Positions 8,950 through 11,560 of a stretch of 64,000 nucleotides of DNA are shown one piece after another. This stretch comes from a virus: IMG/VR virus record IMGVR_UViG_3300045988_178038, positions 1 to 64,000 of that record. One strand, given 5' to 3'. Within the stretch, counting starts at the first letter, position 1. Every line of letters starts with the position of its first letter. Below the pieces are notes generated by a model. It was not told where the DNA came from. It worked only from the letters and a program-made list of their open reading frames with translations, and made no database searches. A program made the translations under genes and the position numbers.

Positions 8950-9581
8950 GTTCAAAGGAGGCGAGAAAAATTTCTACTTCAACTACGCCCTCTAATTTGG
9001 TAATAAATAAATTTCCAAATAGAGAAGTTTATGAAAAGATAAAAGCGAAGGGTAGTCTCGGCGAGGATGATGTAAATGTCTTGGAGGACTATGGTTATAC
9101 GTTGACTGAGACTGATAAGACGGAGATCGCTGGTAAAGTTATAGCCGATGGGACGGAGTTCACGCTTTCAGAGTTTCCGACGGCACTGAAAAACCCACAT
9201 GCTCTGACGTTTACAGGCGCGGCGACGGGGACTTACGATGGCTCTGCGGCTCTGACGGTAAACATTCCGGCGGGCGGGGCCTCCGGCTCCGGCGGAGCAC
9301 TCAAGGCGATGAGCGCCGTGAGCGGGTACATCGGCATCCCCGCGGCGGAGCTGCCGGAAAACGGCATGGTGTGGATGTGCTTCGGTTCCGGCGATAGCAT
9401 GGAGCTGTATACCGGTACGGTGACGATCCAGGATGCTGGGATCGCAGTTAACGATATGCTTGTGATCACAAACGGGATAGTAAACCCGCTCAATCAGGTA
9501 TCGTGGGTCCGCGATGGACTCGCGATATACGGACTCTCGACGAGTAACTACCGTGGCGTGTACATGGTCACAGGCGGATAG
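8928..9581 (+). CDS. tail-fibre protein, chimeric (AT-rich 5-prime end, GC-rich 3-prime two-thirds); start uncertain
   Basis: Motif LKNPHALTFTGAATGTYDGS is shared with minus-strand ORF 12758..13246; no ATG near the AAGGAGG at 8953; composition switches near 9050-9100. Confidence 0.5.
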   Translation: MVSNLNISSKEARKISTSTTPSNLVINKFPNREVYEKIKAKGSLGEDDVNVLEDYGYTLTETDKTEIAGKVIADGTEFTLSEFPTALKNPHALTFTGAATGTYDGSAALTVNIPAGGASGSGGALKAMSAVSGYIGIPAAELPENGMVWMCFGSGDSMELYTGTVTIQDAGIAVNDMLVITNGIVNPLNQVSWVRDGLAIYGLSTSNYRGVYMVTGG

Positions 9582-11560
9582 GAGGGCATATGGGCATCAC
9601 AAAACTCAAGGATATTGATGCGAGCGGGCTGAGCGAGCTGGTGGGACTCTACGTTGAGGTGGTAAGCGATGGCGACTAAGGTACTGGTAAAGGATGGAAA
9701 GCTTGCGACGTATGGGGGCAAGGTAGTGAAGGTGGAGGCGACGGGCGCGGAGGCTATCGAGTGGCATCAGTGTCCGGAGCCGGTGCGGAACTATCTGGCA
9801 AACGTGACCTATGATCCCGGCGACTACAGCACATCTCAAATCGCCAATTATGCGCCAGCGACAGCAGTTGTGAGCAATTACAAGCCCATCGGGCAGACGG
9901 TTGGCGGTGTGACGCGCTACAATGAGGTGCCGAACGTTCTGACGCCTTTCGCGTCAGGTGGAAAAGCCGGAACGCTAAAACCGCTGGATGCCTTGCGTTG
10001 GATACGCACATCGGCCGGGGCAACCGCTTGGAACGTGCGTGACCTTGGCGGATGGGCATGTGATGGCGGTACGGTAAGGTATGGATTGCTGTTTCGCGGC
10101 GGAAAGCTGGCGGCGGCTGACCGGGCCGTGCTCGTCGGCGAGCTGGGCATCCAGCATGATCTTGATCTCCGTGGCCGTGAAGGCGGGGGAGCGGACGACG
10201 AGCCGAGCATGACAGCCTCCCCGCTGGGCGGCGACGTGTGGTACACACGCACACAGCAGTATGCATGGTACGCTCTGACGCCGGTAACGACATGGCAGAC
10301 TTACCTCCGCTGCGTAATCGACGCAGTGACGCATCGGGAGCCGGTATATTTTCACTGCACCGCAGGTGCAGATCGTACTGGTACGTTGGCCTGTATGCTT
10401 GAGGGGTTGCTCGGCATGAGCCAATCGGACATCGACAAGGATTATGAGCTGACTACATTTTATTCCGGCTCCGGGTCGGATGCGACTGCACGGAGGCGCA
10501 ATGAATCAGACTGGAAGGGGCTTATCAATGCGATCAACGCCGTTTCCGGCGACACATTCCGTGACAAGTGCGTACACTTTGCCGTAGGAACGTGCGGGAT
10601 GTTGATGACCGATATCAACGCCTTTCGCGCGGCCATGATCAGCGGGACGCCTGAGACGCTGCACTGGTATCAGACGATCACCAAAAATCTCACAGGCTGC
10701 ACAATCAGCAACGCCGCGTCTCAGGTGGATTACGGCGAGGCGTACACCGCAACCATTGCGGCGGAAAGCGGAAAGACAATCACGTCCGTAGTGGTCAAAA
10801 TGGGCGGCGTGGATATTACGGCCACGGCTTATACGGCCAGCAACGGTGCAATCAACATCGCCAAGGTGACGGGAGCGGTCGTAATCACTGCGGCTGCCTC
10901 TGCGCCGTCTGTGACTTACAACATCACGCGCAACCTCACCAATTGCGCATCGTCCAACACGGCGGACACCATCGCCGAGGGCGCGGCCTACACCACGACG
11001 CTCTCTCCGACTGGCACATACAAGAAGCTGGGTGCAATCATCGTCACAATGGGCGGGGTGGACATCTCCGCTTCGGCGGTGTCCGGTAGTACCGTGAGTA
11101 TTACCAAGGTTACTGGTAATATCGCAATTACTTGTGCTGCAGTCGTCACAAACATCATTGATACTATCGGAATATCTGCGGATACGCGGCTGAGTACGTC
11201 GAGTGGCGCGAACAGAACGCAGGTAGGATATGCGGCTATCGGCGCGAACATGGACGCATCGAGCCTGATCCATCTGAAAGCGGGAGATACGCTCCGCATC
11301 AAGGGCGCAAGCCTCCCTGCGTCGAATGATAGTTACAGCGCAATCGCGTTGCACAATGCAAGCGGAACGTTCAGCACATCGACATATCTGCATAACGGGC
11401 TTACTTGGAATGGCATGACGTTTAACAATGCTGGAGATAGCGTCGTCGTAACTGCTGCTGGAGAACATTATTTCCGCGTTTCCATGATTTGCACTGATGC
11501 TTCAAAGGTCGTGGCGACAATTAACGAGGCGATCGAGTAAGGAGGAGCGATCATGATAGT
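9050..11560. other. GC-rich compositional island (likely horizontally acquired receptor-binding cassette)
   Basis: Abrupt change from AT-rich to clearly GC-rich sequence and codon usage; ends right after the stop at 11540; long antisense shadow ORFs typical of high-GC DNA. Confidence 0.65.
9669..11540 (+). CDS. tail-fibre/receptor-binding protein: tyrosine-phosphatase-like (Y_phosphatase3-type) domain, two Ig-like repeats, C-terminal binding domain
   Basis: WNVRDLGG and VYFHCTAGADRTGT (CX5R P-loop), DKDYELT; two repeats of about 85 aa (..MGGVDITATAYT..KVTGAVVITAAA / ..MGGVDISASAVS..KVTGNIAITCAA). Confidence 0.75.
   Translation: MATKVLVKDGKLATYGGKVVKVEATGAEAIEWHQCPEPVRNYLANVTYDPGDYSTSQIANYAPATAVVSNYKPIGQTVGGVTRYNEVPNVLTPFASGGKAGTLKPLDALRWIRTSAGATAWNVRDLGGWACDGGTVRYGLLFRGGKLAAADRAVLVGELGIQHDLDLRGREGGGADDEPSMTASPLGGDVWYTRTQQYAWYALTPVTTWQTYLRCVIDAVTHREPVYFHCTAGADRTGTLACMLEGLLGMSQSDIDKDYELTTFYSGSGSDATARRRNESDWKGLINAINAVSGDTFRDKCVHFAVGTCGMLMTDINAFRAAMISGTPETLHWYQTITKNLTGCTISNAASQVDYGEAYTATIAAESGKTITSVVVKMGGVDITATAYTASNGAINIAKVTGAVVITAAASAPSVTYNITRNLTNCASSNTADTIAEGAAYTTTLSPTGTYKKLGAIIVTMGGVDISASAVSGSTVSITKVTGNIAITCAAVVTNIIDTIGISADTRLSTSSGANRTQVGYAAIGANMDASSLIHLKAGDTLRIKGASLPASNDSYSAIALHNASGTFSTSTYLHNGLTWNGMTFNNAGDSVVVTAAGEHYFRVSMICTDASKVVATINEAIE

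Follow-up and report, generated by a model that had tools for sequence, protein, structure and literature searches.

What is a block of clearly GC-rich DNA doing in the tail-fibre locus of an AT-rich phage, and what does it encode? This question is raised by a 64,000-nucleotide stretch of viral DNA (IMG/VR record IMGVR_UViG_3300045988_178038, positions 1 to 64,000), hereafter referred to in full as the window. In it, a GC-rich block lies between a resident fibre gene and an endolysin gene and carries a gene for a 623-aa protein. By profile, motifs and fold, this protein is a member of the phosphatase family Y_phosphatase3, and the block is very probably a horizontally exchanged fibre cassette. 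Enzymes of the phage particle decide which bacteria a phage can reach. For hosts of the Gram-positive type, the known repertoire consists of peptidoglycan hydrolases, glycosidases or lyases, esterases, and GDPD phosphodiesterases; to our knowledge, Cys-phosphatases have not yet been studied on any phage particle. Below, contigs carrying the phosphatase gene have L numbers, and proteins of the phosphatase family have P numbers.

The 623-aa protein matches the Pfam family Y_phosphatase3 (PF13350) with E = 9.3e-26 and 91.7 bits, the cutoff being 22.2, over residues 119-292 and profile positions 5-197 of 240. Both motifs pointed out in an earlier reading of the sequence made without database searches (the sequence-only reading) are present, NVRDLGG at 10032-10052 and HCTAGADRTGT at 10353-10385 (residues 229-239, with Cys230 encoded at 10356-10358); a further core motif, SQSDIDKDYELT, is encoded at 10419-10454. 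The search of PDB sequences retrieved the C. difficile protein tyrosine phosphatase (PTP) 8DHI and M. tuberculosis PtpB 1YWF. An AlphaFold2 monomer model, built on 74 sequences of 30-94% identity, has a mean predicted local distance difference test score (pLDDT) of 78 and is confident from residue ∼120 to the end except for the loop 253-277, with pLDDT of 80-96 over most of residues 120-332. Using Foldseek, we matched the core at probability 1.0 to 8DHJ, 8DHI, 1YWF, 4R0S, and 6BYF, the matched proteins including MptpB, TpbA, and Siw14. The Y_phosphatase3-type fold proposed from the sequence is thus confirmed by Pfam, by the PDB sequence search, and by the model. No GDPD TIM-barrel (PF03009) or pectin-lyase-like beta-helix was found in the protein by Pfam, PDB or Foldseek search. 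Pfam scans also revealed no peptidoglycan- or wall-hydrolase domain, leaving the PTP fold as the sole catalytic domain found.

The core is preceded by a short adaptor and by a conserved family-specific extension, in which Q34, Y48, S56, Y61, P73, G75, P88, G101, P105, and R110 are invariant in the 74 sequences. It is followed by two tandem repeats, residues 333-413 and 414-493, which are 45% identical over 75 aa (E = 4e-16); two repeats had indeed been predicted, but of about 85 rather than ∼80 aa. The repeats are modelled as all-beta with pLDDT of 89-96, and Foldseek matches them to immunoglobulin (Ig) domains in PDB and, in BFVD, to "Bacterial repeat domain" proteins and to proteins annotated as tail tube, distal tail, or decoration protein. 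In Pfam, they have only a weak match to Big_12 (E = 0.037). The C-terminal beta-sandwich tip, modelled alone with pLDDT of 96.1, is the most variable folded domain and is mosaic between alleles. It has weak structural matches to a pectate-lyase carbohydrate-binding module (CBM), to CBM32, and to the Acinetobacter phage Fri1 tailspike gp49. When the sub-domains were scanned one by one against Pfam at relaxed thresholds, only sub-threshold hints emerged (Big_12, Glyco_hydro_79C, BclA_C).

The phosphatase family is large. We found 4103 homologues of the 623-aa protein at E ≤ 0.001 among 90%-identity representatives, the best 120 of them all being 86-94% identical to it, and an exhaustive search yielded 443 clusters at 50% identity with E ≤ 1e-30. 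The sequence-only reading had called a phosphatase fold in such a protein unusual; this is correct for cultured and deposited phages, none of which has the phosphatase part, but not for the very large metagenomic family. The conserved family unit comprises query residues ∼25-332, has varying N- and C-terminal partners, and is sometimes found inside proteins of 800-1750 aa. In the 74 aligned sequences, H229, C230, G233, D235, R236, and T239 are invariant. Of ∼150 representatives, ∼130 have a sequence that spans the catalytic core, and nearly all of these have the P-loop. Across relatives of about 30-94% identity, there is almost no variation in the motifs HC-x-x-G-A-D-R-T-G-T, N-x-RDLGGW-x-CDGG, and SQSDIDKDYELT. 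In a handful of members (L024, P0305, P0327, and P0337), CX5R is replaced by CX5K (HCGAGADKT); possibly, catalysis is altered in these variants, or they only bind.

Purifying selection acts on the gene, with dN/dS of about 0.13 (0.11-0.16 across all allele pairs) and of 0.08-0.21 per domain. The value for the core is ∼0.12, the lowest among the non-terminal domains. From this conservation, the enzyme is likely to be active. A catalytically dead module, one of the options in the sequence-only reading, is disfavoured by the near-invariance of the Cys, the Arg, and the P-loop Asp, and a dead pseudo-enzyme was rejected as a candidate on account of these conserved catalytic residues. One apparently shortened allele was seen in L084, a 119.5-kb IMG/VR contig of the same lineage as the window phage, where the phosphatase ORF (open reading frame; 5995-7350) has 451 aa and the P-loop reads HCTTGADRT; a frameshift or a nonsense mutation in this one member may be the cause.

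Among the named homologues, the closest is from a metagenome-assembled genome (MAG) of Subdoligranulum variabile (73% identity), and those from MAGs of other Oscillospiraceae, Ruminococcus, and Butyricicoccaceae are at 32-53%. Several cellular homologues start with signal-peptide-like or lipoprotein-like sequences, and hence the domain seems to be used also outside the cytoplasm. All carriers of the family come from gut and rumen samples.

The composition of the block sets it apart from the rest of the window. Its GC content is 0.569, compared with a mean of 0.391 (standard deviation 0.025, maximum 0.454) in all other 2466-bp windows of the 64 kb, which gives z = 7.0. In 300-bp windows, GC passes from 0.33-0.40 (8750-9199) to 0.55-0.65 (9050-11299) and is back at 0.35 by 11450-11749; outside the block, all 1-kb bins are at or below 0.47. 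At a resolution of 60 bp, GC climbs from 0.42 at 9070 to 0.68 at 9220 on the left and drops from 0.53 at 11490 to 0.22 at 11550 on the right, within ∼20 bp of the stop codon (11538-11540). Both the jump inside ORF 8928..9581 near 9050-9100 and the fall within 20 bp of the stop had been noticed in the sequence-only reading and are borne out at this scale. The sequence-only reading had also proposed a plot of GC and codon usage as a check, and codon usage agrees with GC: the GC content at third codon positions (GC3) is 0.65 in the gene for the 623-aa protein, 0.68 where ORF 8928..9581 is GC-rich, and 0.22-0.43 in the neighbouring genes. Homology ends with the block as well, as matches to L029 and L038 stop at 11566, and those to L004 at 11557.

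The same order of an AT-rich flank, a GC-rich gene, and an AT-rich CHAP endolysin gene recurs in L001, L002, L031, L039, and L084, independent assemblies from other samples. These five contigs are AT-rich and syntenic with the window phage, and in them the gene again forms a GC island. The remaining carriers are of different kinds: ∼45-kb phages of 62% GC (L004, L028, L029, and L038); a siphovirus prophage in a 59% GC chromosome, beside tyrS-recN-argR-dxs (L003); a small podovirus-like prophage with a P22-type portal, in a chromosome that encodes many SLH and LRR_5 proteins (L036); and a four-gene prophage remnant (L032-L035). At least four more AT-rich contigs (L044, L049, L081, and L108), in all else unrelated to the window, also carry the gene as a GC island. 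As a side observation, the remnant (e.g. L033 9261-13154) encodes a 246-aa fibre-like protein, a 638-aa phosphatase protein, a holin, and Amidase_3, and adjoins a relaxase/ParB/recombinase element; it is present in several independent assemblies.

The cassette is 90-93% identical in nucleotide sequence to the 62% GC phages, and the limits of the matches coincide with those of the cassette. In particular, L028 (61.7% GC) matches positions 9144-11557 of the window in one piece at 92.8% identity. Up to 9092, the window phage and L001 have backbones of 95-96% identity. The gene itself shows a different pattern, since the window allele is 91.9% identical to that of L028, 91.5% to L029, and 90.1% to L004, compared with 86.0% and 87.7% for the sister phages L001 and L031, respectively; the L031 allele, in turn, is nearest to L029 (93.1%). 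The last 70 nt of the gene are 99% identical to L028 and L029 and 71-75% to L001, L031, and L003, and in 200-nt bins of the tip, identity varies from 71 to 99% depending on the partner allele. The closeness of alleles across backbones, together with the mosaicism of segments, points to repeated recombination between both kinds of phages rather than to one ancient insertion with vertical descent. Near-identical alleles in phages of 39% and 62% GC also imply co-infection of the same hosts.

All five sampled members of the lineage (L001, L031, L039, L084, and the window) bear the island, with differing indel states and non-monophyletic alleles. The synonymous distance (dS) to the nearest allele of a GC-rich phage is 0.26. 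GC3 is 0.64-0.67 in all alleles of the gene, which means that there has been almost no amelioration. The cassette had been described as recently acquired. Foreign origin is supported by the matches to the 62% GC phages, but the island is neither private to the window phage nor recent, as five lineage members carry it. The GC shift is thus common to all sampled members of the clade, an outcome that the sequence-only reading had named as speaking against an insertion, and still the block is clearly foreign. As for the donor lineage, no single donor genome type can be named with confidence, because in L028- and L036-type phages the GC3 of the gene (0.66-0.72) is below that of its neighbours (0.78-0.91) and is similar only to the L003-type tail module (0.61-0.77), as judged by GC3 of called genes. 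The gene looks like a common property of a phage community, and the picture is one of old residence with repeated allele exchange.

The left junction of the cassette lies within a fibre gene. The gene preceding it (8200..8949), the first of the local fibre operon, has Pfam matches to H_lectin (E = 4e-5) and Gp53-like_C (E = 3e-4) and to six PHROG tail or structural families; with GC of 0.365 and GC3 of 0.22, it is 95-96% identical to L001 at the nucleotide level. The next ORF is chimeric. It consists of AT-rich resident DNA up to 9092 and of GC-rich cassette DNA from 9093, GC3 changing from 0.36 to 0.68, and the resident N-terminus is joined in frame to GC-rich sequence at the motif Y-T-L-T-E-(A/T)-D-K-T-E-I-A-G-K. 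An alternative start is TTG at 8997, to which the gene caller's start in L001 corresponds, with AAGGAGG at 8955-8961. The in-frame splice onto a resident fibre N-terminus, claimed in the sequence-only reading, therefore exists, but it lies in this separate upstream ORF (8928/8997..9581) and not in the phosphatase gene; the 623-aa protein is encoded by its own ORF with its own adaptor N-terminus. A PHROG search with the 217-aa chimeric protein had no match.

Compared with the 472-aa fibre protein of L001, the chimeric ORF lacks residues 33-167 and ∼329-469, both deletions being in frame. In blastp, its residues 24-55 align to L001 residues 1-32 at 94% identity, and residues 56-216 to 168-328 at 89%. 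At the DNA level, the window past 9092 is without 405 bp and ∼870 bp that are present in L001. The 405-bp deletion (junction at 9092; L001 8150-8553) is unique to the window: L001, L039, and L084 do not have it, and no other contig shows the same junction. It removes a CBM_5_12-like "YxxGDxVxY" segment, and may be either real or an assembly collapse. The short fibre C-end, "YRGVYMVTGG*", is common to the window and the GC-rich phage L028. Separately, the motif "LKNPxxLxxxGxxxxxYDGSxxxxxxIP" occurs in the chimeric ORF (9180-9270, plus strand) and in a 162-aa ORF (12758-13246, minus strand), which suggests, from the sequence pattern, a fibre shaft module common to the AT-rich and GC-rich parts.

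Between the chimeric ORF and the phosphatase gene, we found a 29-codon ORF. It is the internal-deletion remnant of a gene for a 166-179-aa CBM_5_12 protein that precedes the phosphatase gene in L001, L004, and L029. The first 5 and last ∼17 codons of that gene are retained, and in tblastn the final 15-17 residues of L001_179 and L004_177 survive. The remnant keeps its own ribosome-binding site (RBS; AGGAGG), and also the 3' end bearing the RBS and the start of the phosphatase gene, which overlaps the end of the remnant by 11 nt. An identical 29-aa ORF has been called in L028 (981-1070). As L028 has both the same truncated fibre end and this ORF, the reduced cassette exists in the GC-rich lineage and was not made in the window phage.

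The phosphatase gene stands after fibre genes and before lysis genes in five unrelated backbones. Its start overlaps or abuts the stop codon of an upstream gene scoring as tail, tail-fibre, or collagen-like in the window, L001, L003, L004/L029, and L036, whereas a spacer of 13-130 nt separates it from the lysis genes. In L036, an internal virion protein is encoded downstream of the lysis genes, which places the phosphatase gene inside the structural block. In the window, the AT-rich spacer ahead of the endolysin gene holds the best candidate promoter of the region, the sole site with an extended -10 element, the total number of such sites being not above that in shuffled sequences. The lysis sets downstream of the gene are a CHAP endolysin, Amidase_2 with an r1t holin, holin_4_1 with Amidase_3, and Amidase_2 with holin_4_1.

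The N-terminus of the protein is exchangeable. Two unrelated modules of ∼30 aa alternate among alleles that are ∼90% identical: "MATKVLVKDGKL..." (type A) in the window and "..IAxAIRxKTG.." (type B) in most others, type A being present in ∼8 of 120 alleles. Entropy among close alleles is 0.59 bits in the adaptor and 0.14 in the core, peaking at residues 1-25 and 576-600, and the P-loop region is nearly invariant. The first ∼40 residues of the BspA-type LRR_5 protein encoded in the window are a type B adaptor, with 66% identity over 38 aa to P0302 (E = 1e-11) and 58% to P0294. This marks the adaptor as an exchangeable module, presumably for docking. The underlying pattern, "LxxIAxAIRxKTG...FPxGFxxAIxxI", appears to be widespread and exchangeable, and has no Pfam or PHROG model. 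From the combination of adaptor and variable tip, we infer an exchangeable, virion-docked distal module. By its gene context and architecture, the 623-aa protein is rather likely to be virion-borne, and a receptor-binding role for it is plausible.

Taken together, these data allow us to propose a mechanism. The cassette would circulate among phages and prophages that are unrelated to each other and whose hosts are GC-rich Clostridia from gut and rumen, of the Oscillospiraceae or Ruminococcaceae type. In the window phage, it is fused in frame at the conserved LTE(A/T)DKTEIAGK linker to the resident fibre N-terminus, and in-frame deletions have removed most of its CBM_5_12 gene. The short adaptor would dock the enzyme to the fibre or baseplate, the two Ig-like domains would serve as spacers, and the variable tip may bind a cell-surface glycan. 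The ∼300-aa Cys-dependent PTP-fold phosphohydrolase, whose conservation is described above, would be catalytically competent. During adsorption, it might remove or cleave a phosphate group of the host envelope, carried by a lipid or by a phosphorylated glycopolymer of the wall or of the S-layer anchor. Like the receptor-modifying enzymes already known from virions, it would thereby process the receptor and allow the phage to get to its binding site or away from it. For this composite reading, an exchanged cassette encoding a virion-borne enzyme that acts on a phosphorylated envelope component of Oscillospiraceae-type hosts, we consider the chances to be about even. An envelope phospho-glycopolymer or lipid as the substrate is a more tentative suggestion. 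Catalysis by Cys-phosphatases proceeds via a phospho-cysteine intermediate, with monoesters or anhydrides as the preferred substrates. Therefore, trimming of phosphomonoesters or pyrophosphates is likelier than depolymerization of teichoic-acid phosphodiesters, the reaction suggested by the sequence-only reading. It is tempting to speculate that the exposed catalytic cysteine stays reduced in the anoxic gut and rumen, the habitat of all carriers. More broadly, phages of gut and rumen Clostridia could carry an unrecognized class of receptor-processing, fibre-borne PTP-fold phosphohydrolases that act on phosphate or pyrophosphate groups of an envelope glycopolymer or lipid and are workable only in anoxia, and the cassette could be a marker of host linkage for large AT-rich phages that are otherwise hard to assign, but this generalization is somewhat doubtful.

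Several observations weigh against the proposed virion-borne enzyme. The PHROG search with the 623-aa protein had no match, and the protein has no signal peptide. Searching deposited phages with the nucleotide sequence of the region retrieved nothing, and the protein search retrieved only two unannotated faecal contigs, which match the Ig-like repeats alone, none having the phosphatase part. No general acid was identified, the profile alignments to 8DHI and 1YWF spanning only the N-x-RD and P-loop segments; the loop 253-277, which holds the invariant SQSDIDKDYELT, is modelled with low confidence. PTP chemistry speaks against depolymerization of phosphodiester polymers. For glycan binding, the difficulty is that in the Foldseek search of PDB the tip had no significant neighbour, the best E-value being 0.05 and the template modelling (TM) score below 0.4. 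For docking, it is that residues 1-109 have pLDDT below 50 in the monomer model (30-50 in the extension) despite strong conservation; a conserved but poorly modelled N-terminus is compatible with folding on assembly. The link to the host is weakened by the portal of the window phage, whose identity is only ∼30% with the phAss-1 portal and ∼25% with portals from large Bacillus siphoviruses. phAss-1, a gut phage, has been tentatively tied to Clostridia/Oscillospiraceae by its authors (PMC10607447). Finally, the location of the gene directly upstream of holin or endolysin genes in every examined backbone, and its survival beside a holin and an amidase in the four-gene remnant, fit a lysis role equally well.

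An accessory lysis enzyme is indeed the strongest of the other explanations, though an unlikely one. It would be a late cytoplasmic protein reaching the wall via the holin, its beta domains binding the wall and its phosphatase attacking phosphate-linked secondary wall polymers or S-layer anchors; in this LysB-like or "receptor-destroying" role, it would free progeny or stop their re-binding to debris. Apart from the gene order and the remnant, this explanation draws on a recognized lysis gene within 2.5 kb downstream, mostly within 200 nt, in 42 of the 74 viral loci with enough downstream sequence (as found with a small probe set), on the lack of a signal peptide, and on SLH-domain proteins encoded by carrier chromosomes. 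However, lysis genes come after fibre genes by default in tailed phages, which makes adjacency a weak argument, and the lysis genes of L036 are themselves embedded among structural genes. Moreover, the overlapping codons couple the gene to the upstream fibre gene, while the spacer and, in the window, the promoter-like site set it off from the lysis genes. The exchangeable adaptor, which co-varies with the backbone and is shared with the LRR_5 protein in the fibre cluster, would be needless for a soluble enzyme. The PTP fold might instead act mainly as a lectin, a receptor-binding domain whose pocket takes up a phosphorylated glycan or lipid but hardly turns it over, if at all. A P-loop is a ready cradle for phosphate, some members have CX5K, the profile alignments assign no general acid, and the low-confidence segment 253-277 with SQSDIDKDYELT might form a mobile lid. 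In known pseudophosphatases, the Cys has typically been lost, but here the Cys, the Arg, and the P-loop Asp are kept in nearly all of the ∼150 representatives and in the 74 aligned sequences, and the core has the low dN/dS given above; this makes a lectin improbable.

An intracellular effector, delivered with the DNA or made early, could dephosphorylate host proteins or signals, for instance as a measure against kinase-based defence or in a takeover of metabolism. The closest solved relatives are protein or phosphoinositide phosphatases, including secreted effectors (MptpB, TpbA, and the C. difficile PTP), and a signal peptide is lacking in this case as well. Still, the gene is coupled to fibre genes and not to early genes, the Ig-like domains and the variable beta-sandwich tip are the architecture of a surface-exposed virion protein, and the export signals of the cellular homologues point to extracytoplasmic substrates, so that we regard an effector as quite improbable. 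The Ig-like domains might also adhere to mucus or epithelium, with the phosphatase acting on glycoproteins or lipids of the animal host. There is a report of gut phages whose modular Ig-like adhesins bind epithelia (PMC13370021), and the phosphatase family is confined to gut and rumen samples; however, that report makes no mention of phosphatases, the cellular homologues and the remnants of prophages speak for a setting in the bacterial envelope, and receptor-binding modules show just such intense exchange of alleles between phages with a common host group. Interaction with the animal host is thus very unlikely. Least probable, to the point of being negligible, is a chimeric contig assembled from an AT-rich and a GC-rich phage. 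It would explain the sharp composition borders and the 405-bp deletion junction seen in the window only, but the flank-island-flank arrangement recurs in five independent assemblies from different samples and pipelines, the frame is continuous across the left junction, and the gene is under purifying selection; the independent assemblies largely rule out a misassembly chimera. One more candidate, a lysogenic-conversion moron exported to the cell surface, was rejected because a signal peptide is lacking and because the gene is also found in a large phage that bears tRNA genes and shows no lysogeny genes in the window.

How does the 623-aa protein compare with known systems? With the C. difficile PTP (8DHI/8DHJ) and M. 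tuberculosis PtpB (1YWF, 2OZ5), it shares the Pfam family, N-x-RD-x-GG, the HC-x-AG-x-DRTG P-loop, the downstream DY-x-L-(T/S) motif, and the PTP alpha/beta fold, at target TM scores of 0.49-0.59. The identity is only 14-19%, and the P-loop Lys is replaced by Ala (HCTAGADRTG instead of HCxAGKDRTG). Furthermore, the window protein adds the adaptor, the ∼90-aa N-terminal extension, the two Ig-like domains, and the tip, and is encoded in a phage fibre module, whereas the solved proteins are stand-alone cellular enzymes. One entry of the same family in UniProt, A0A8S5QN55, has the same architecture and is 78% identical over ∼590 aligned columns. The "Tyrosine phosphatase family protein" entries in UniProt and nr (Caudoviricetes sp., Ackermannviridae sp. 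ctQad106, Myoviridae sp., Siphoviridae sp.) come from uncultured human-gut viromes and were annotated automatically. In the literature, we found no paper tying Y_phosphatase3 to phages or a tyrosine phosphatase to a tail fibre, and none on this protein.

The nearest architectural analogy is with the glucan phosphatases laforin and SEX4, in which a dual-specificity PTP-fold domain is fused to a carbohydrate-binding module. The design would be alike, a Cys-phosphatase tethered to glycan-binding beta-sandwich modules in order to dephosphorylate a polysaccharide, but laforin and SEX4 belong to another PTP subfamily and are eukaryotic and intracellular, and no CBM family could be assigned to the tip of the window protein. 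Virion enzymes that act on phosphate-containing wall polymers have been described, as cited in PMC6116005 (its references 38-40) and PMC10194240, for the phi29 appendage protein gp12, which degrades wall teichoic acid, and for GDPD domains in the baseplates or tails of Lactobacillus phage Ld17 and enterococcal phages. Like them, the window protein is encoded by a tail-module gene and would be an enzyme of the adsorption apparatus acting on an anionic phosphate polymer of a Gram-positive-type host. It differs in catalytic fold, GDPD being a metal-dependent TIM-barrel phosphodiesterase and gp12 a beta-helix, while the window protein has a PTP fold with a Cys nucleophile. Hence it is not a member of either group, and is possibly a functional analogue. 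The exchange itself follows the general pattern of fibre cassettes, with recombination at a conserved linker, an anchor that is kept or swapped, a replaced distal part, and intragenic mosaicism. Here, however, it bridges a 20-point gap in GC content (39% versus 62%), and the traded part is an enzyme, not a plain binding tip. It also spans a ∼120-kb tRNA-bearing siphovirus, ∼45-kb phages, integrated prophages, and a podovirus-like prophage.

What appears to be new here, going by the gene and its relatives, is a catalytic fold placed within the known setting of tail-module enzymes and exchangeable fibre cassettes. If the proposed reading is true, Cys-phosphatases are a new chemistry in the virion enzyme repertoire, and they point to a receptor that is phosphorylated and belongs to gut commensals of the Subdoligranulum/Oscillospiraceae type, which are abundant but little studied. 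As the family is uncharacterized, one biochemical study would annotate thousands of genes. The sharing of alleles between the ∼120-kb, 39% GC lineage and temperate phages of 62% GC provides a host prediction for a lineage without cultured relatives, and shows the reach of fibre cassettes across genomes of very different composition.

Coordinates of the features discussed, in window positions
Feature	Position	Strand	Basis or remark
Five tRNA genes (Gly-TCC, Lys-TTT, Ile-GAT, Leu-CAA, Met-CAT)	778-2140		
Resident AT-rich tail-fibre-like protein, 249 aa, H_lectin / gp53-like C-terminus	8200..8949	+	Pfam, PHROG
Chimeric fibre ORF, 217 aa from TTG 8928	8928..9581	+	blastp, junction alignment
GC-rich cassette	9092..11557	+	composition and homology
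29-codon ORF MGITKLKDIDASGLSELVGLYVEVVSDGD	9590..9679	+	tblastn, RBS check
Phosphatase-bearing putative fibre protein, 623 aa	9669..11540	+	ORF list, Pfam Y_phosphatase3, homologues
N-terminal adaptor, type A (MATKVLVKDGKLATYGGKVVKVE...)	9669..9758	+	entropy among close alleles, family survey
Conserved family-specific N-terminal extension (WHQCPE..VRNYL..VTYDP.DYS..)	9759..10022	+	conservation in 74 sequences
PTP-fold catalytic core (Y_phosphatase3)	10023..10664	+	Pfam, PDB sequence search, Foldseek
Two tandem Ig-like / "bacterial repeat" beta-sandwiches, ∼80 aa each	10665..11147 (10665-10907, 10908-11147)	+	self-alignment, model
C-terminal 130-aa beta-sandwich tip	11148..11537	+	model of domain alone
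Sigma-70-like promoter match, TTGAAA-17-TATATT with upstream TG	11610..11638	+	10/12 matches
Resident CHAP + PG_binding_1 endolysin, GC 0.44	11668..12438	+	Pfam and PHROG
Bidirectional terminator	12447-12478		downstream of endolysin
BspA-type LRR_5 protein	13328..14014	-	Pfam LRR_5, E = 1.6e-33

The window phage is a large siphovirus of 39% GC, and related contigs of its lineage are ∼120 kb long. It encodes the portal protein (44022-45536), a 2170-aa tape measure protein (57323-63835), ClpP, PhoH, and homing endonucleases. Past the endolysin gene, the opposite strand carries further fibre-like and BspA-LRR proteins. Two homing-endonuclease genes, 51924-52865 (NUMOD1/GIY-YIG-like) and 55960-57036 (HNH_3 + NUMOD4), lie within the structural block upstream of the tape measure gene.

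An ORF-free, polypurine-rich stretch of ∼1 kb (28270-29300) has GC skew of 0.56, AT skew of 0.52, and degenerate A-rich tandem repeats, and coincides with the peak of cumulative GC skew and with a switch in gene orientation. Inside an adjacent ORF (27091-27738), there are 22-bp direct repeats in 3.6 copies (27428-27507). By their sequence features, the two regions form a candidate replication origin with iterons. The rightward late/structural block opens with a gene (39197-40525) for a 442-aa protein with a PHROG sigma-factor match (E = 2e-12) and a hint of a Lar-like C-terminus.

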